Shown piece by piece: positions 2,127 through 10,623 of a DNA stretch of 11,873 nucleotides. The notes under the pieces were generated by a model. The model made no database searches. It saw only the letters and a program-made list of their open reading frames with translations, and had not been told where the DNA came from. How positions within the stretch are numbered: the stretch's first letter is position 1; each line of letters begins with the position of its first letter. The DNA is from a virus. Taxonomy: Duplodnaviria > Heunggongvirae > Uroviricota > Caudoviricetes. The position numbers were made by a program, and so were the translations under genes. Where the stretch lies: the IMG/VR virus record IMGVR_UViG_2695420792_000013, positions 1 to 11,873 of that record, one strand, 5' to 3'.

Positions 2127-2402
2127 ATGAGCAAGCAAGTAACACTCATGACTGATGCGATTCCTTATCAGGAGTTCGCAAAACTAATAGGAAAATCGAC
2201 AGGAGCGGTTCGTCGGATGATCGATAAAGGAAAGCTGCCTGTAATTGATATGACCGATCCACAATCAGCTTCAGGTCGTGCAGGTGAATATTGGGTATAC
2301 CTTCCGGCATGGAATAACGGACTAAAACTGGCTTATGAAAGCCGCCCTAAAGAGATTCGTGACGGCTGGTTGATGTGGTTAGGTCTCGGTGAACCACGTT
2401 AA
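2127..2402 (+). CDS. cox: Cox-like excisionase / directionality factor and transcriptional regulator
   Basis: 91-aa ORF, the length of P2 Cox. First gene of the rightward early operon, directly opposite C. Confidence 0.75.
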   Translation: MSKQVTLMTDAIPYQEFAKLIGKSTGAVRRMIDKGKLPVIDMTDPQSASGRAGEYWVYLPAWNNGLKLAYESRPKEIRDGWLMWLGLGEPR

Positions 2403-3894: not shown

Positions 3895-4166
3895 GTATTC
3901 GTATTGAAATTGGCGAACGTTATGTCGTTACCAGTGACAGCTTTCAGTTTATTCTCCACGAGAAAAAGAGAGCGGAAAGCGGTAAAAACGCCGGTCAGGA
4001 ATGGCTGGCGGTGGTTGGTTATTACCCGAAATTAAGCCAGCTCGTTTCCGGCCTGATGCATCACGATATTCTGACCGGAAGCGCAAAATCTTTTGCCGAT
4101 TTAAACGTGCAGGTTGAGCAACTCAGCAGGCGTTGTTCAGAGGCTTTTGGCTCATATGGACGTTAA
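3891..4166 (+). CDS. Hypothetical early protein (P2 orf83 position)
   Basis: 91-aa ORF with start overlapping the previous stop, directly upstream of A. Confidence 0.5.
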   Translation: MSIRIEIGERYVVTSDSFQFILHEKKRAESGKNAGQEWLAVVGYYPKLSQLVSGLMHHDILTGSAKSFADLNVQVEQLSRRCSEAFGSYGR

Positions 4167-6279
4167 AGCCTCCGGGCGTTTTGTCCCTCCGTCAGCATTT
4201 GCCGCAGACACCGGTAAGACGTTTACCGGTGCTTATGCATGGAACGCGCCACGCGAGGCTGTCGGGCGCGAAAGACCCCTTACACGTGACGAGATGCGTC
4301 AGGTGCAAGGTGTTTTATCCACGATAAATCGCCTGCCTTATTTTTTGCGCTCGCTGTTTACTTCACGCTATGACTACATCCGGCGCAATAAAAGCCCGGT
4401 GCACGGGTTTTATTTCCTCACATCCACTTTTCAGCGTCGTTTATGGCCGCGTATTGAGCGTGTGAATCAGCGCCATGAAATGAACACCGACGCGTCGTTG
4501 CTGTTTTTGGCAGAGCGTGACCACTATGCACGCCTGCCGGGAATGAATGACAAGGAGCTGAAAAAGTTTGCCGCCCGTATCTCATCGCAGCTTTTCATGA
4601 TGTATGAGGAACTCTGCGATGCCTGGGTGGATGCGCATGGCGAAAAAGAATCGCTGTTTACGGATGAGGCGCAGGCTCACCTGTATGGTCATGTTGCTGG
4701 CGCTGCACGTGCTTTCAATATTTCCCCTCTCTACTGGAAAAAATACCGTAAAGGGCAGATGACCACGAGGCAGGCATATTCTGCCATTGCCCGTCTGTTT
4801 AACGATGAGTGGTGGACTCATCAGCTTAAAGGCCAGCGTATGCGTTGGCATGAGGCGTTACTGATTGCTGTCGGGGAGGTAAATAAAGACCGTTCACCTT
4901 ATGCCAGTAAACATGCTATTCGTGATGTGCGTGCGCGCCGCCAGGCAAATCTGGAATTTCTTAAATCGTGTGACCTTGAAAACAGGGAAACCGGCGAACG
5001 CATCGACCTTATCAGTAAGGTGATGGGCAGTATTTCTAATCCAGAAATTCGCCGGATGGAGCTGATGAACACCATCGCCGGAATTGAGCGTTACGCCGCC
5101 GCAGAGGGTGATGTGGGGATGTTTATCACGCTGACCGCGCCGTCAAAGTATCACCCGACACGTCAGGTCGGAAAAGGCGAAAGTAAAACCGTCCAGCTTA
5201 ATCACGGCTGGAACCATGAGGCATTTAATCCAAAGGATGCGCAGCGTTATCTCTGCCGTATCTGGAGCCTGATGCGCACGGCATTCAAGGATAATGATTT
5301 ACAGGCCTACGGTTTGCGTGTCGTTGAGCCACACCACGACGGAACGCCGCACTGGCATATGATGCTTTTTTGTAATCCACGCCAGCGTAACCAGATTATT
5401 GAAATCATGCGTCGCTATGCGCTCAAAGAGGATGGCGACGAAAGAGGAGCCGCGCGAAACCGTTTTCAGGCAAAACACCTTAACCGGGGCGGTGCTGCGG
5501 GGTATATCGCGAAATACATCTCAAAAAACATCGATGGCTATGCACTGGATGGTCAGCTCGATAACGATACCGGCAGACCGCTGAAAGACACTGCTGCGGC
5601 TGTTACCGCATGGGCGTCAACGTGGCGCATCCCACAATTTAAAACGGTTGGTCTGCCGACAATGGGGGCTTACCGTGAACTACGCAAATTGCCTCGCGGC
5701 GTCAGCATTGCTGATGAGTTTGACGAGCGCGTCGAGGCTGCACGCGCCGCCGCAGACAGTGGTGATTTTGCGTTATATATCAGCGCGCAGGGTGGGGCAA
5801 ATGTCCCGCGCGATTGTCAGACTGTCAGGGTCGCCCGTAGTCCGTCGGATGAAGTTAACGAGTACGAGGAAGAAGTCGAGAGAGTGGTCGGCATTTACGC
5901 GCCGCATCTCGGCGCGCGTCATATTCATATCACCAGAACGACGGACTGGCGCATTGTGCCGAAAGTTCCGGTCGTTGAGCCTTTGACTTTAAAAAGCGGC
6001 ATCGCCGCGCCTCGGAGTCCTGTCAATAACTGTGGAAAGCCTGCCAGCAGTGATACTTCGTTACCGGCTCCCACGCCTTCTGAACATGCCGCAGCAGTGC
6101 TTAATCTGGTAGATGACGGTGTTATCGAATGGAGTGACCCGGAGGTTGTGAGGATTCTAATGGTAGTGTTAAAAGGAGGGGAAGCATACAAAATCAACAA
6201 CGAAGACGATTATCACCGCAAAGTGCCGAACAAGTCAGCTCAGTGGCTAAAACAAAGAATAAATAGAGTGGGTAACTAA
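4114..6279 (+). CDS. A: Rolling-circle replication initiation endonuclease, P2 gpA-like
   Basis: 721-aa ORF. HUH motif HWHMML at 5350-5367. Paired catalytic tyrosines in YIAKYISK (Y codons at 5503-5505 and 5515-5517), the phiX174/P2 gpA signature. True start may be the ATG at 4156, which would minimise overlap with the upstream ORF. Confidence 0.9.
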   Translation: MSNSAGVVQRLLAHMDVKASGRFVPPSAFAADTGKTFTGAYAWNAPREAVGRERPLTRDEMRQVQGVLSTINRLPYFLRSLFTSRYDYIRRNKSPVHGFYFLTSTFQRRLWPRIERVNQRHEMNTDASLLFLAERDHYARLPGMNDKELKKFAARISSQLFMMYEELCDAWVDAHGEKESLFTDEAQAHLYGHVAGAARAFNISPLYWKKYRKGQMTTRQAYSAIARLFNDEWWTHQLKGQRMRWHEALLIAVGEVNKDRSPYASKHAIRDVRARRQANLEFLKSCDLENRETGERIDLISKVMGSISNPEIRRMELMNTIAGIERYAAAEGDVGMFITLTAPSKYHPTRQVGKGESKTVQLNHGWNHEAFNPKDAQRYLCRIWSLMRTAFKDNDLQAYGLRVVEPHHDGTPHWHMMLFCNPRQRNQIIEIMRRYALKEDGDERGAARNRFQAKHLNRGGAAGYIAKYISKNIDGYALDGQLDNDTGRPLKDTAAAVTAWASTWRIPQFKTVGLPTMGAYRELRKLPRGVSIADEFDERVEAARAAADSGDFALYISAQGGANVPRDCQTVRVARSPSDEVNEYEEEVERVVGIYAPHLGARHIHITRTTDWRIVPKVPVVEPLTLKSGIAAPRSPVNNCGKPASSDTSLPAPTPSEHAAAVLNLVDDGVIEWSDPEVVRILMVVLKGGEAYKINNEDDYHRKVPNKSAQWLKQRINRVGN

Positions 6280-6443
6280 ACTCGCTTTGTTTTAGTTTGT
6301 GAATATATGAGACTGGACGCTGAAACCTGACGAGTAGGTTTGTGAGAATGATGATCTATTTGCATTGAGATAATATGTTAAGTTATAGGCTTTCTGCGTT
6401 AGTGCACTTCCCCCCCCCAACCGTAGCAGGGGGAGGTAAAGGG

Positions 6444-7298
6444 TTAAGCAAATCTTAATATTTCTTTAGGTATGGGAGTTGCACAAGCTAATCTTCGTCT
6501 TTCTAACATTAAAGGATCCTTAGTAATTTTCAAATTATTATTGACGGATAAATGTGATTTTAAGGATGACAACCAGAGCTTAATGAACTCAAAGACATAT
6601 TTACCCTTAATGGCTCTTTCGTACGGTAATTCATTGAAGAATGAAATCAATGCTTTTACATCCTCTGAGTCTTCATTTACTTCATAATCTATTAACGTAG
6701 CATTATCCTTGATTGAGATATTTTTATACTCAATATTGATAACTGAAGATATTTTATTGTAGAATTTTGTTTTCCCGTTTGCATTATGATTTACAAATAG
6801 AGGTCGGCATAATTCTTTTGCTAACTTTTGAAATAGTTGGAAGTCGGACTCAAAATCTTTTTTGATACGCGCCAATAAATCAGACTGTGTTATATCCATT
6901 TTGAACTCGTCCTTTAAATAGCTTTTTGTAGAGGAAGAGTTAATAATATAGTTTTCAATTGAATAACATGAAAGAGTAACAATGTTATCAGAATTATGCT
7001 CAAATAGGTCAAAGTCATGATCTACAAAAAAGTAGCAATTGCTTAATATTTCTTGATCATTATGTTGAATTGCATGCTCGTATAACTCAATTATCTGTTT
7101 TTTTCCTTTCGCCACAAGGTGGCCTGCATTAGCATACTCTGGATTGTGTTTCATCCATTCATCGTATACAGGGTAATCATCAACACCTTCAAAAACAAAA
7201 ATTTTATCGAAGGATGATGTTTTAAGTAATATCTCTTGCTTTAACGGATTTCTCGAAAAAGCTTCTTTTTTCATAGTATGTAGGAGATTGTTACTCAT
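6444..7298 (-). CDS. TOPRIM-like (DUF4435-like) nuclease, AriB-like effector candidate
   Basis: 284-aa ORF. TOPRIM-style motifs: IFVFEGVDD (Glu codon at 7188-7190) and FFVDHDFD (DxD at about 7014-7022). Start ATG shares one base with the upstream ATPase stop. Strongly AT-rich coding sequence. Confidence 0.7.
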   Translation of the reverse strand: MSNNLLHTMKKEAFSRNPLKQEILLKTSSFDKIFVFEGVDDYPVYDEWMKHNPEYANAGHLVAKGKKQIIELYEHAIQHNDQEILSNCYFFVDHDFDLFEHNSDNIVTLSCYSIENYIINSSSTKSYLKDEFKMDITQSDLLARIKKDFESDFQLFQKLAKELCRPLFVNHNANGKTKFYNKISSVINIEYKNISIKDNATLIDYEVNEDSEDVKALISFFNELPYERAIKGKYVFEFIKLWLSSLKSHLSVNNNLKITKDPLMLERRRLACATPIPKEILRFA

Positions 7299-8764
7299 CA
7301 GACACTACCCTTTCGTACTTTCATAGCAGTTGCATAAGGGTCTAGCTCATTGTCAAATATGAATGGTGAATGCGTTATGGCAATTATTTGCCTAACATTT
7401 TCACCCGCATTCAAATCTGGTAATATCATCCGTTGCCACTCTATCGATAACGAAAGTTCCGGTTCATCTATTAATATTATTTTAGGGGTATTATCATTAA
7501 GATAAATCGTAGCCATTAGCGAAATTACTTGTTTCTCACCTGAAGATAAGTCATTAAGAGAGATGCGATCTCCTGTATATGTATCTTTTACGATAACTTC
7601 TAATCTTTGAGGATCAAATTTTAGAGATTTAGAATCACCTGCTGATGAAAGATATTTATCACAAACAGCAACGAATTTCTCAATTTTTGACTCTTGCTCT
7701 TTTGTTTCTTGTATAACCGAGTTTAATTGAGTTAAAAAATATTTCAAGTAAGTGATGTTTTTTATTTCATCTTTGTTATATAGCAATTTAAGCGAATCAA
7801 TTAAAGATTTCTTTTTTGATTCAGATGCTCTTTTTTCTCGCAAATTTGTACCAGTATCCTCAACTCGATTAAGGAATCTTTCCAAATCCTCTATAGAAGG
7901 TAGTGCATTTTGTTCTTTAGCTATCCGCTCATTGTTACCATATTTAATTAAATCCTCAAGCATTTTGGCACTTAAAGATCTATAGCCAAGGTTTGATGTC
8001 CTTTCAATTTCTAAAGTTAGACCTTTTAAAGCATCTTCGACATCCTTTAACCCATATGAAATGCCATCACGTTGTAGTTTCATCCCTCTTTTTCTACCAA
8101 ACATGCGAGGGTGAAGATTTTCTCTTTCTTCCCTAGGTGTCGTCTCAAAACTTTTTTCTACCCTTCGATATGTTGGTAGAAATATAACGTCTAAATCCCT
8201 AAGCGCTTCAGCAACCACTCTAAAATTATTATTTTTAGAGTAATGCATTTTTAAATTATGCTGTTCCTTATTCTTCATTTTATTAACTATGTTGTCTTTT
8301 AGTTCTCTTAGAAAATGATTTATATAATCCTTTGGGTATTTTACGGTATTATATAGGTCATTGACTAAAGCATCATCATTGAATTCATTTTGCTTCGAGT
8401 CAATTAAAGTCTTCGCAAACTTGGTAATATCACGATCATCCCAAAATGACTCATTAAGAGAAAATCTTTCATTGAGGAATGCTTTTATTTCACCAAAAGG
8501 TATTAAAGATGCTCTTTCATTTTTAATTTCAACCTCCTCATGACCAAGAATCTTTATGAATATTGATTTAAAATCAATTCTCATAAGGTTTGTAAAATCT
8601 TGCTCGAGAAGAAGTCTTATAGCATTAAGTATGGTTGTTTTTCCTGCGCCGTTCTCGGATACGAAAACTGTTGTCTTGCCTTTCATTTTCATAGTTATAT
8701 CTTTATAACCATGAACTCCTGTCATTCTAAAATATTCAATCGGGTAATTATTACGTGTAGTCAT
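7298..8764 (-). CDS. ABC-type ATPase with coiled-coil insertion, AriA-like
   Basis: 488-aa ORF. Walker A ENGAGKTT (codons at about 8633-8650). Signature-like LSSGEKQ. Walker B IILIDEPE (D-E codons at 7463-7468). H-loop ITHSP. A long K/E/L-rich middle segment suggests a coiled coil. AGGAGA Shine-Dalgarno 4 nt upstream of the ATG. AT-rich. Confidence 0.75.
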   Translation of the reverse strand: MTTRNNYPIEYFRMTGVHGYKDITMKMKGKTTVFVSENGAGKTTILNAIRLLLEQDFTNLMRIDFKSIFIKILGHEEVEIKNERASLIPFGEIKAFLNERFSLNESFWDDRDITKFAKTLIDSKQNEFNDDALVNDLYNTVKYPKDYINHFLRELKDNIVNKMKNKEQHNLKMHYSKNNNFRVVAEALRDLDVIFLPTYRRVEKSFETTPREERENLHPRMFGRKRGMKLQRDGISYGLKDVEDALKGLTLEIERTSNLGYRSLSAKMLEDLIKYGNNERIAKEQNALPSIEDLERFLNRVEDTGTNLREKRASESKKKSLIDSLKLLYNKDEIKNITYLKYFLTQLNSVIQETKEQESKIEKFVAVCDKYLSSAGDSKSLKFDPQRLEVIVKDTYTGDRISLNDLSSGEKQVISLMATIYLNDNTPKIILIDEPELSLSIEWQRMILPDLNAGENVRQIIAITHSPFIFDNELDPYATAMKVRKGSV

Positions 8765-9010
8765 TATGTCTCCTTTCGTCTACATTACTAAAATCAGTTA
8801 GTCAATTTTCTTAAAAACTAAAGTAACAGAAGCTTTCGATATATTTGAACAGCTAATTCATACAGCAAAGTCAAACTTAATTCAACTATCCATCAGGCGG
8901 TGCACGATTCGTACAGCGCAACCCACAGTTGATTCAACTCGGATTATAATAATTGCAGATATTTTTTGCGATTTCCAGTGGCTACTAGTCATTTTATTGT
9001 GATCCCTAAA

Positions 9011-9029
9011 CCACCTCCTGGGGAGGTGG
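9011..9029. repeat. Subterminal palindrome of the IS200-like element (left)
   Basis: Perfect 8-bp stem with 3-nt loop, seen directly. Confidence 0.6.
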
Positions 9030-9117
9030 TGATTGATCCTGTAAGGCTATAGCCTGAAGAATGCCCATGTCGGAATATCTCTGCTTACTCACCACAAGTA
9101 AAAGGAGACAAACTGAC

Positions 9118-9552
9118 ATGGGGTTTTACAGAAGTTCATCATATGTATATTGGCGTTGCAAATATCACATAGTCTGGACGGCAAAGTACCGTTTTAGGAT
9201 CCTGAGGGATAAATTGGGCAAGGAGCTGTACAGAACCATCTATATTCTTTGCGGAATAAAAGATTGTGAGGTTCTGGAGTTAAATGTACAGGCAGATCAT
9301 GTGCATCTTGTCGTAATAGTGCCGCCAAAAATCTCAATATCTACTCTGATGGGGCACCTGAAAGGTCGCAGTGCAATCAGACTCTACAATCGATTCCCGC
9401 ATATCAGGAAGAAGTTATGGGGAAACCATTTTTGGTCGTGGGGTTACTTTGTTGATACGGTAGGCGTGAACGAAGAAATTATCAGACGATATGCGAGGTA
9501 TCAGGAAAAGATGGAGCAAACACATGAACAGCAGATGGAGTTGCTAGAGTAG
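9118..9552 (+). CDS. tnpA: IS200/IS605-family Y1 (HUH) transposase TnpA
   Basis: Motifs CKYHIVW, HUH in HVHLVV, and catalytic Tyr context WGYFVDTVG. Listed ORF starts at 9061, but the ATG at 9118 follows an AAGGAGA Shine-Dalgarno and gives a family-typical 144 aa. A GC hairpin at 9572-9589 follows the stop. Confidence 0.8.
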   Translation: MGFYRSSSYVYWRCKYHIVWTAKYRFRILRDKLGKELYRTIYILCGIKDCEVLELNVQADHVHLVVIVPPKISISTLMGHLKGRSAIRLYNRFPHIRKKLWGNHFWSWGYFVDTVGVNEEIIRRYARYQEKMEQTHEQQMELLE

Positions 9553-9600
9553 AAAACGGAATATGACATTCGCCCCCCTTATAGGGGGCATTCTGAAAAG

Positions 9601-9619
9601 CCACCTCCTCAGGAGGTGG
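9601..9619. repeat. Subterminal palindrome of the IS200-like element (right)
   Basis: Perfect 8-bp stem with 3-nt loop, near-identical to the left copy. Confidence 0.6.
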
Positions 9620-9752
9620 TCTTTTACTTCTACTGTGTTTGATGCATGAATTTGCATTCGAGTTTTTCTGAGCGTTGCCTTGTCAGTTGTAGGTCTTGTG
9701 GGGTTGGGGTGGCCTAATGCAACTGCATTATTAGCGCCCTATGAAGCGGGCG

Positions 9753-9771
9753 GGCGAGGCGGGGAAAGCAC
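9753..9771. other. P2-type cos site (19-nt cohesive-end sequence)
   Basis: GGCGAGGCGGGGAAAGCAC matches the P2 cohesive end as I recall it. The flanking sequence resembles the P2 genome termini, and it lies just upstream of the 3' end of portal gene Q, as in P2. Confidence 0.6.
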
Positions 9772-9940: not shown

Positions 9941-10440
9941 TCAGCCGTTGTCAGTGTCCAGTGAGTAGTTTTTAAAGCGGATGACCTCCTGACCGAGCCA
10001 GCCGTTTATCTCGCGGATCCTGTCCTGTAACGGGATAAGCTCATTGCGGACAAAGACCTTTGCCACTTTCTCAATATCACCCAGCGACCCGACGTTCTCC
10101 GGCTTGCCGCCCATCAACTGAAAGGGGATGCGGTGCGCGTCCAGCAGGTCTGCGGCGCTGGCTTTTTTGATATTAAAAAAATCATCCTTCGTTGCCACTT
10201 CACTGAGCGGGATAATTTTAATGCCGTCGGCTTTCCCTTGTGGGGCATAGAGAAACAGGTTTTTAAAGTTGTTGCGGCCTTTCGACTTCACCATGTTTTC
10301 GCGGAGCATTTCGATATCGTTGCGATCCTGCACGGCATCGGTGACGTACATGATGTATCCGGCATGTGCGCCGTTTTCGTAATACTTGCGGCGGAACAGC
10401 GTGGCCGACTCATTCAGCCAGAGCCAAAGGTCGTATTGGT
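9941..10440 (-). pseudogene. Q: Portal protein Q-like gene, C-terminal fragment only (5'-truncated)
   Basis: Listed ORF 9941-10351 (136 aa). The frame stays open upstream to about 10456 without a plausible start. Position and orientation next to cos match P2 Q, which is about 340 aa, so most of the N-terminus is missing. 5' boundary approximate. Confidence 0.6.
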
Positions 10441-10623
10441 GGCAGACGTCCGAAACTCACCGCGAGTGAGTGGGAGCAGGTCGGACGGTTGCTGGATGCG
10501 GGGGAATCTCGTCAACGCGTGGCGCTGATTTTTGATATTGGCCTGTCCACGCTCTATAAGAAATTCCCCTCATCAGCGACAAAGAATAAATTGTGTCATC
10601 CCTTAGCCAACCGGGACAAATAG
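10414..10623 (+). pseudogene. Serine DNA invertase (Gin/Pin/Hin family), C-terminal HTH fragment
   Basis: KGRIGGRRPKLTASEWEQVGRLLDAGESRQRVALIFDIGLSTLYKKFP resembles the C-terminal DNA-binding domain of Gin/Hin-type invertases. No N-terminal catalytic domain is present. The listed ORF start at 10366 is probably fortuitous. 5' boundary approximate. Confidence 0.65.

Follow-up and report, generated by a model that had tools for sequence, protein, structure and literature searches.

What does a P2-like prophage carry between gene A and cos at this locus, and does the AT-rich gene pair found there constitute an anti-phage system? The window analysed here is an 11,873-nt stretch of viral DNA (IMG/VR record IMGVR_UViG_2695420792_000013). 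Within it, BLASTN against phage P2 gives 98.3% identity up to position 6153 (P2 30031), inside gene A, and P2 homology returns at 9724 (P2 33546), at cos (9724-9771). The interval between these breakpoints is that of P2 orf91, tin and old, and the gene pair has the same leftward orientation, in agreement with the placement in the P2 tin/old slot made in a preliminary description of the sequence. The cargo forms a 32% GC island, with a GC content of 0.30-0.34 against 0.51-0.57 in the flanks. Sequenced P2-like phages hold other genes in the gpA-cos interval, for example those for Fic/VbhT, DUF3850 and DUF4209 proteins, and by Megablast the cassette was found in none of 50,697 records of sequenced phages.

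In addition to the gene pair, the interval contains an IS200-family element. Its tnpA product matches the Pfam family Y1_Tnp (2.3e-37), and the element is 97% identical to hundreds of plasmid IS200 copies. It lies between the operon and the cos-proximal region. The element was entered alongside the gene pair in Table S5A of Rousset et al. 2022; it is part of the catalogued arrangement, but lies outside the defence system.

Both genes of the pair, here termed ariA and ariB, are intact open reading frames, and their boundaries are exactly those first described (Table 1). The junction had been reported as a 1-nt ATGA overlap. The overlap is indeed 1 nt, but the sequence is TGATG rather than the classical 4-nt ATGA: the ariA stop TGA (7300-7298) and the ariB start ATG (7298-7296) have one A in common. 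This arrangement is predicted to couple the translation of the two genes. The 1-nt overlap also occurs in a Serratia copy of the pair, and Klebsiella and Yersinia copies overlap by 11 nt.

The signals surrounding the operon are less distinct. The ribosome-binding site of ariA is strong. A promoter would be expected in the AT-rich stretch between ariA and the IS200 end; a scan of this stretch, by crude comparison with the sigma-70 consensus, gave no minus-strand site that agrees at 9 or more of the 12 positions. Across 6200-9700, the numbers of promoter and terminator consensus sites were not above those in shuffled sequence. The hairpin downstream of ariB has a predicted energy of -24.7 kcal/mol, with a z-score of only -1.3, and is not significantly stabler than its shuffles. 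Rfam at gathering thresholds gave no match across the whole window.

Table 1. Positions of the ariA-ariB pair and neighbouring features in the window.
Feature	Position	Strand	Description
ariA	7298..8764	-	488-aa ABC/SMC-type ATPase; proposed PARIS sensor and scaffold
ariB	6444..7298	-	284-aa DUF4435/TOPRIM nuclease; proposed PARIS effector
ariA/ariB stop/start overlap TGATG	7296..7300	-	Read from sequence
Shine-Dalgarno AAGGAG	8770..8775	-	5 nt upstream of the ariA ATG; read from sequence
AT-rich stretch upstream of ariA, up to IS200 end	8765..8988	-	Expected promoter location
GC-rich hairpin	6407..6441	-	Begins 3 nt past the ariB stop; possible operon terminator, without U tract
Variable cargo interval, P2 gpA-cos hotspot	6154..9723	.	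Holds ariB, ariA and the IS200-family element
IS200/IS605-family element	8989..9629	+	tnpA 9118-9552; between ariA and cos

The AriA protein contains each of the motifs of an ABC-type ATPase that were initially noted: Walker A (ENGAGKTT, residues 37-44, with lysine K42), the ABC signature (LSSGEKQ, residues 406-412), Walker B (IILIDEPE, residues 429-436, with D433 and E434) and the H-loop (THS, residues 464-466, with H465). In an alignment of 44 AriA-like homologues, K42, S407-Q412, D433/E434 and H465 are invariant. A coiled-coil-like insert had also been proposed. In the AlphaFold2 (AF2) model, of moderate confidence (pLDDT 77), three long helices (239-275, 308-330 and 338-374) lie between the halves of the ATPase head, consistent with a helical insert spanning ~239-374. 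Residues 200-236 form a variable, disordered and basic loop. The motifs and the model together identify AriA as a predicted ABC/SMC-type ATPase that has a helical insert and in which every catalytic motif is present.

In AriB, the two TOPRIM-like motifs of the preliminary description are likewise present: FVFEGVDD supplies E37 and D41, and VDHDFD supplies D93 and D95. A further motif absent from that description, SIENY, supplies E115. All five acidic residues are invariant in an alignment of 31 AriB-like homologues. Judged from its sequence, AriB is a DUF4435 protein with the complete two-metal TOPRIM acidic set. Its AF2 model (pLDDT 91.4) has a sole significant PDB match in Foldseek, the AriB chain 8ux9_A, which aligns over the full length (E 1e-5); the overlap is only moderate, with a TM score of 0.53, an rmsd of 7.2 Å and 14% identity.

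The published rule for detecting PARIS requires two adjacent genes, one with AAA_15 at ≥32 bits or AAA_21 at ≥27 bits and the other with DUF4435 at ≥27 bits (Rousset et al. 2022). Here, AriA scores 64.1 bits for AAA_15 (2.3e-17) and 62.0 bits for AAA_21 (1.3e-16), AriB scores 53.6 bits for DUF4435 (3.5e-14), and the genes overlap by a single nucleotide; the Pfam cut-offs are 32.1, 27 and 27 bits, respectively, and scores this far above them are not expected by chance. The preliminary description, which took the pair for a PARIS-like ATPase/TOPRIM module, had proposed exactly these profile searches, together with defence-system models and structural comparison, as checks. The latter two give the same answer as Pfam. 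Among PADLOC models, AriA PDLC04164 (2.8e-31) and AriB PDLC02983 (4.5e-18) rank first for the respective proteins, and the solved AriA and AriB structures are the best matches of the two AF2 models. Profiles, fold, homology to PARIS-1 and location between gpA and cos are therefore in agreement. Taken in aggregate, the data indicate that the pair is very probably a two-gene PARIS system (ariA-ariB), sharing its sequence family with PARIS-1 of E. coli O42, carried as swappable gpA-cos cargo and expected to act by the mechanism described for the B185 system.

An alternative is that the proteins belong to a different ATPase-nuclease family, such as a split class 1 OLD, Gabija, Septu/PtuAB, AbiL or MADS3-4, and are only superficially PARIS-like. 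The AAA_15/21 ATPase is common to all of these families, and AriA also matches the PADLOC models for PtuA (best 2.5e-22), mad3 (5.6e-18) and GajA (2e-11). In NCBIfam, no family is above cut-off for either protein, and the best match of AriA is PtuA, although at 63.6 bits this is far below the cut-off of 500. However, the AriA model leads PtuA, the next PADLOC family, by nine orders of magnitude, and the GajA match is confined to the N-terminal P-loop region. Fold searches likewise place AriA and AriB first; with the AriA model, the top 14 PDB matches in Foldseek are all AriA chains (E ~1e-13), and retron PtuA follows at 1e-7. The partner protein is equally discriminating. The only PADLOC match of AriB apart from its own model is the fused AriAB model, and it has no match to TOPRIM-Old, RloB or DUF4276 in Pfam, nor to HNH in Pfam or PADLOC, nor does it match a UvrD helicase.

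Considered family by family, Septu does not fit a DUF4435 partner lacking HNH and an ATPase for which PtuA models score below AriA. Gabija pairs GajA with the UvrD-like helicase GajB, and no helicase is encoded between gpA and cos. Class 1 OLD does not fit two separate ORFs without a TOPRIM-Old match. The preliminary description had also called the pair "split OLD-like", and this part of it does not stand in any close sense: BLASTP of AriA and AriB against P2 Old gives insignificant E values of 0.019 and 0.05. Membership in one of these other families is thus highly improbable.

In homologous loci, the two PARIS genes stay together. The pair is retained with overlapping ORFs in all five loci examined (Serratia, Klebsiella, Yersinia), which have unrelated contexts, and the identities of AriA and AriB run in parallel across the compared copies (86/79, 67/64 and 53/55%), as for a fixed, co-evolving pair. 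Relative to the Serratia copy, dN/dS is 0.04 for AriA and 0.06 for AriB; both genes are under strong purifying selection. DNA homology with the Serratia cassette begins at 8779 and spans the ribosome-binding site and the two ORFs, with nothing further upstream.

If the pair operates as B185 PARIS does (Rousset et al. 2022; Burman et al. 2024; Deep et al. 2024; Belukhina et al. 2025), the response likely involves: sequestration of inactive AriB monomers by a hexamer of AriA; binding of a phage-encoded trigger to AriA, which in known cases is an acidic or DNA-mimic anti-restriction protein; and an ATPase-dependent step that would free AriB. The freed AriB would then dimerise and cleave particular host tRNAs within the anticodon stem-loop, after which translation would halt and the infection abort. 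By analogy, sequestration, triggered release, tRNA cutting and abortive infection are the likely mode of action here. The functionally tested PARIS systems are PARIS-1 and PARIS-2 only, both from P4 satellites (Rousset et al. 2022).

Two further readings accept the protein assignments and differ on the role of the pair. In one, the genes are a true PARIS pair by sequence, but remain in a decaying prophage as cargo that is silent or does not function, leaving the host undefended. The prophage is defective, lacking ~14.4 kb (portal gene to invertase gene) that the B7A prophage has, and gene A lacks its P2-type 3' end and is called a pseudogene by PGAP in B7A and GN4143. Upstream of ariA, at a distance of 224 nt, is the IS200 element with its terminator-like hairpins, and the promoter scan found no sigma-70 consensus match ahead of the gene. 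The related PARIS-1, which has broad anti-phage activity when induced, is silent from its native promoter (Rousset et al. 2022). Against this, both ORFs are intact and encode proteins 100% identical to those of E. coli B7A (AriA, WP_001297422; AriB, WP_001297419), the GN4143 copies differ by one residue in each protein, and ariA retains its strong ribosome-binding site. Prophages integrated at two distinct attachment sites also retain the IS200-ariA-ariB order, and the consensus scan is a crude test. Moreover, prophage defence genes are typically expressed independently of lytic functions. Silent cargo is on balance unlikely, though it is the most serious of the alternatives.

In the other reading, the pair serves mainly to stabilise the prophage as a toxin-antitoxin or addiction module, in which AriB would be the toxin and AriA the antitoxin, and not as a defence system that senses a trigger. 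The overlapping two-gene layout does resemble that of toxin-antitoxin modules. [quoted passage not shown] 2022). Here, the ATPase gene comes first and the nuclease gene second, and a full set of conserved ATPase motifs would be unnecessary for a simple antitoxin. The addiction and defence roles are also not mutually exclusive. As a principal function, addiction is rather improbable, less so than membership in another family, and a trigger-sensing PARIS system remains the preferred reading.

The pair had been suggested to be a divergent or unclassified variant. "Unclassified" does not hold: WP_001297422 and WP_001297419 are listed for the P2 gpA-gpQ hotspot in Table S5A, and the 284-aa sequence carries the label "PARIS" in Table S5B (Rousset et al. 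2022). In row 149 of the latter table, the exact sequence of the window AriB appears as 'protein 2'; 'protein 1' is a 393-aa ATPase unrelated to the window AriA apart from the ABC motifs, and this row was rejected as a record of the same system, the correct pair being that of Table S5A. A full-text search for both accessions retrieved no paper; they are present only in these supplementary tables. PARIS in this slot is already known, and its occurrence in P2 and P4 hotspots is established. Because the same proteins are already tabulated as PARIS in the P2-hotspot tables, the finding is correct but ordinary and carries little weight as a discovery. RefSeq names the proteins only 'AAA family ATPase' and 'DUF4435 domain-containing protein'; given these generic names and the lack of an NCBIfam model that recognises the pair, the annotation can be upgraded. 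Among complete E. coli genomes, the variant is rare (3 of 5,426).

Among known systems, Septu/retron PtuA and Gabija GajA have a related AAA_15/21 ATPase, with PtuA giving the next-best matches by both profile and fold, and the difference lies in the partner: an HNH nuclease in PtuB, a helicase in GajB and a DUF4435 TOPRIM protein here. P2 Old, a class 1 OLD protein, is encoded in the corresponding slot of phage P2, likewise leftward and beside cos. It has the broad superfamily logic of joining an ABC ATPase to a TOPRIM nuclease in common with the window pair, and also kills via tRNA cutting. However, it is a single fused polypeptide of 586 aa, whereas the window encodes two ORFs, and its stimulus is RecBCD inactivation, not a phage protein that a separate sensor binds.

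Of the PARIS systems tested, PARIS-1 of E. coli O42 is the nearest relative. The order of the two genes and their Pfam domains are the same, and the protein sizes are similar. By BLASTP, the window AriA is 34% identical to O42 AriA over the 399 residues available (E 9e-57), and AriB is 27% identical to its counterpart (E 5e-22). Motifs in common include LPTYRR-EKS, SLGYR-LSA, FVFEG-DDY, YFFVD-D and GKYV. O42 AriB matches 199 of the 205 members of the window AriB family, and the two proteins form one continuous AriB sequence family. They nevertheless differ in that overall identity is only ~30% and the C-terminal tail of PARIS-1 AriB is ~25 aa longer. The contexts also differ: PARIS-1 of O42 is on a P4-like satellite, in the P4-satellite hotspot (Rousset et al. 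2022), and the window pair is on a P2-like prophage.

The mechanistic and structural reference is PARIS-2 of E. coli B185 (PDB 8UX9, 8V45-8V49), with which the window pair has its architecture and catalytic residue sets in common. B185 chains are the best PDB matches of both models, at 14-17% structural identity. At the sequence level the relationship is far weaker. For AriA, only the C-terminal ATPase half aligns (E 9e-12), and the window protein is 24 aa longer, with the disordered basic loop described above. For AriB, phmmer against all PDB sequences gave no AriB match, BLASTP against B185 AriB gave nothing, and hhalign of the 31-sequence profile against the single B185 sequence gave a probability of 0.3%; it is therefore through the Pfam and PADLOC profiles and the fold that AriB is linked to B185.

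Placed in motif register, window E37/D41/D93/D95/E115 correspond to B185 E26/D30/D88/E90/E122 (B185 residues from Burman et al. 2024), and the second TOPRIM motif, D-x-E in B185, reads D-x-D in the window protein. The same register places V39 and Y42 at the positions of R28 and R31, the arginines by which B185 AriB docks on AriA, and details of the AriA-AriB interface must therefore differ from those of B185. Nor can it be assumed that the B185 triggers (Ocr, Ptr1, Ptr2) and tRNA targets (Lys-UUU, Thr-UGU, Asn-GUU) carry over. The clade with the 488-aa AriA and 284-aa AriB, found in Enterobacterales, has almost no AriB sequence in common with B185 and could possibly, if tentatively, differ from B185 PARIS in the phage proteins that it senses, in the tRNA or other RNA that it cuts, and in its docking interface. 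Burman et al. 2024 raised the question of whether trigger and tRNA specificities vary from one PARIS system to another. The great distance of the window AriB from the B185 reference makes it a reasonable comparator for such differences; if the clade does differ in sensing, cutting and docking, it would offer a natural variant in specificity with which the recognition of triggers and substrates by PARIS could be mapped.

Profile matches under the published detection rule, PADLOC ranking, predicted folds, catalytic residues and homology to PARIS-1 (E. coli O42) support the interpretation that ariAB, the ATPase and DUF4435 gene pair of this P2-like prophage, is a variant of the PARIS anti-phage system, already catalogued and located within a known hotspot. 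A PARIS-like pairing of ATPase and TOPRIM nuclease had been proposed in the preliminary description. In Pfam, AriA matches AAA_15 (2.3e-17, 64.1 bits) and AAA_21 (1.3e-16, 62.0 bits), and AriB matches DUF4435 (3.5e-14, 53.6 bits), with no TOPRIM-Old, RloB or HNH match found for AriB. The published PARIS rule calls a neighbouring gene pair at 32 bits for AAA_15 or 27 bits for AAA_21, with 27 bits for DUF4435; the bit scores of the adjacent ORFs exceed these thresholds, and the rule therefore identifies the pair as PARIS. Among PADLOC models, AriA ranks first for the ATPase (2.8e-31; next PtuA, 2.5e-22), and AriB (4.5e-18) is essentially the sole match to the 284-aa protein.

The AF2 models, based on 31 (AriB) and 44 (AriA) homologues, have pLDDT values of 91.4 and 77.3, respectively, and both retrieve their PARIS counterparts ahead of other PDB structures in Foldseek. 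The AriB model has one significant match, AriB 8ux9_A (E 1e-5, probability 1.00, TM 0.53, 14% identity). For the AriA model, the first 14 matches are without exception AriA chains (E about 1e-13); retron PtuA comes next (about 1e-7), ahead of Rad50 and SMC heads. All motifs initially quoted for the two proteins are present in the sequence, and AriB carries a third TOPRIM motif, SIENY, which contains E115. Invariant positions are K42, S407-Q412, D433/E434 and H465 in AriA homologues (n=44), and E37, D41, D93, D95 and E115 in AriB homologues (n=31); by motif register, the latter correspond to E26, D30, D88, E90 and E122 of AriB from E. coli B185 (PARIS-2; residues per Burman et al.).

The two ORFs match exactly the lengths and coordinates first assigned to them. 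The single shared base also described there is present (TGATG), whereas the 4-nt ATGA overlap implied by the same wording is not. The ariA ribosome-binding site, AAGGAG, lies 5 nt before the start codon, and the cassette has a GC content of 32% versus 53-57% in flanking phage genes. A GC-rich hairpin (C5...G9 stem) begins 3 nt past the ariB stop codon; it lacks a U tract, its stability relative to shuffled sequence is not significant (z -1.3), and it may be a terminator or a cassette junction scar. Within AriA, residues 200-236 form a basic, variable and poorly conserved extra loop (pLDDT <50), directly after an invariant LPTYRRxE motif.

Features of the prophage and its cargo interval (window coordinates)
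Feature	Position	Strand	Remark
int	584-1597	minus	
C	1713-2012	minus	
cox	2127-2402		
B	2574-3080		
gene A	4156-6279	+	
ori nick site	about 6014		within gene A, kept
GC-rich hairpin	6407-6441	minus	
ariB	7298-6444	minus	284 aa
ariA	8764-7298	minus	488 aa
AriA loop 200-236	about 8057-8167	minus	
IS200/IS605-family element	8989-9629	+	between ariA upstream region and cos
Hairpins at element ends	about 9003-9030, 9600-9620		
tnpA (IS200/IS605)	9118-9552	+	
P2 cos site	9753-9771		19 bp
Portal gene Q remnant	9941-10351	minus	136 aa
Invertase/recombinase gene 3' fragment	10366-10623		HTH_7

The window covers the left portion of this prophage, which is integrated beside yegR. In BLASTN, phage P2 (NC_001895) is matched at 98.3% identity from int to window 6153 (P2 30031), within gene A; the match restarts at the cos site (9724-9771) and runs on into portal gene Q. 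Both cosR and cosL of NC_001895 match and the P2 cos site is retained, so the right end of the cargo interval is at 9723, about 30 nt left of it. In the P2 counterpart of the interval lie orf91, tin and old, whose leftward transcription starts at a cos-adjacent promoter. Because P2 homology flanks the interval, ariAB shares this leftward orientation, and P2-like phages already sequenced carry unrelated genes there, the earlier placement in the tin/old cargo slot is correct. The cassette itself was absent from all 50,697 phage records.

At the 3' end of gene A, P2 homology is lost 288 nt short of the P2 A stop codon, and the ORF continues through 42 unrelated codons into low-GC cargo; in B7A and GN4143, PGAP calls this gene a frameshifted or truncated pseudogene. 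To the right of ariAB lie the IS200-family transposase gene, the Q remnant and, abutting it, the invertase fragment, immediately ahead of gene FI (tail sheath). The window stays colinear with the B7A prophage as far as about position 10380, and P2 homology extends to 10421; about 14.4 kb is absent relative to B7A, comprising terminase, capsid, lysis, baseplate and tail-fibre genes.

Expression of ariAB from this locus is uncertain, since the 224 nt separating ariA from the IS200-family element yielded no consensus promoter, PARIS-1 was silent from its own promoter (Rousset et al.), and the window prophage is defective. The IS200/IS605 element, bounded by hairpins, may insulate ariAB from cos-side transcription; the same insertion occurs in B7A, GN4143 and loci listed by Rousset et al.

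Gene anatomy, conserved catalytic residues and fold are demonstrated for ariAB; the remaining mechanism is drawn by analogy with B185 PARIS. An AriA hexamer would keep up to three AriB monomers inactive; phage protein binding and ATPase activity would set AriB free (B185 triggers are T7 Ocr, T5 Ptr1 or Ptr2); and translation would stop, aborting infection. Burman et al. found the AriA pores facing the trigger to be poorly conserved from clade to clade, a caveat that applies strongly here.

AriB homologues (43-99% identity, all about 284-290 aa) range across Enterobacterales and Aeromonas. In the five loci examined, the ATPase gene always directly precedes the AriB gene, the two ORFs overlap, and the contexts are unrelated: the Serratia copy occupies a small islet of the chromosome, away from any phage genes, and the Klebsiella variicola copy an island beside colicin, microcin and HEPN genes. 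The Yersinia copy (L007 6539-8855, GCA_902170645.1) is flanked by int and ogr in a 186-like prophage; it belongs to the same PARIS clade (64-67% identical) and occupies another cargo position of a P2-family phage. DNA homology between the window and Serratia stops at the two ORFs and ribosome-binding site (8779-6463), so the mobile unit is the gene pair alone. Compared with the Serratia copy, AriA has a dN/dS of 0.04 and AriB one of 0.06; synonymous sites are close to saturated in this comparison.

The system is already known. WP_001297422.1 (AriA) and WP_001297419.1 (AriB) of B7A match the window proteins at 100% identity and appear in Table S5A of Rousset et al. under the P2 gpA-gpQ hotspot; 3 of 5,426 complete E. 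coli genomes carry the cassette (B7A, GN4143, GZ2408C), annotated merely as 'AAA family ATPase' and 'DUF4435 domain-containing protein'. In the curated Table S5B of Rousset et al., row 149 (13 occurrences, labelled 'PARIS') prints a 284-aa sequence, protein 2, identical to window AriB. Protein 1 of that row is an unrelated 393-aa AAA_21-type ATPase (MKLTELTING...) that differs from window AriA; the mispairing probably arose because loci were grouped by Pfam domain architecture, and cloning from this row would combine the wrong genes. The variant lies outside the set cloned and tested by Rousset et al., and the literature searched yielded no mention of WP_001297422 or WP_001297419 in the main text of any paper. 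As the family is known, trigger, RNA target and expression are ordinary follow-up questions.

A split OLD-like module had also been suggested, but P2 Old is matched in BLASTP only at E 0.019 and 0.05, which rules out close kinship. For the PARIS comparison, Table S2A of Rousset et al. supplied the sequences of the two validated systems. PARIS-2, the subject of all structural and mechanistic work, is much more distant from the window pair than PARIS-1. Alignment with B185 AriA is confined to the C-terminal ATPase half (E 9e-12), and loop 200-236 is additional in window AriA. B185 AriB shows no similarity to window AriB by phmmer, BLASTP or hhalign and reaches just 3 of 205 window AriB family members, weakly; its AriA-docking arginines R28 and R31 are V39 and Y42 in window AriB by register. 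The PARIS-1 proteins, in contrast, are clear homologues: AriA is 34% identical across the 399 residues printed in Table S2A (E 9e-57), and AriB 27% identical (E 5e-22). The window AriB family profile matches 1,014 representatives of 50%-identity clusters, and O42 AriB matches 199 of the 205 family members in BLASTP, so the two AriB proteins belong to one continuous family.
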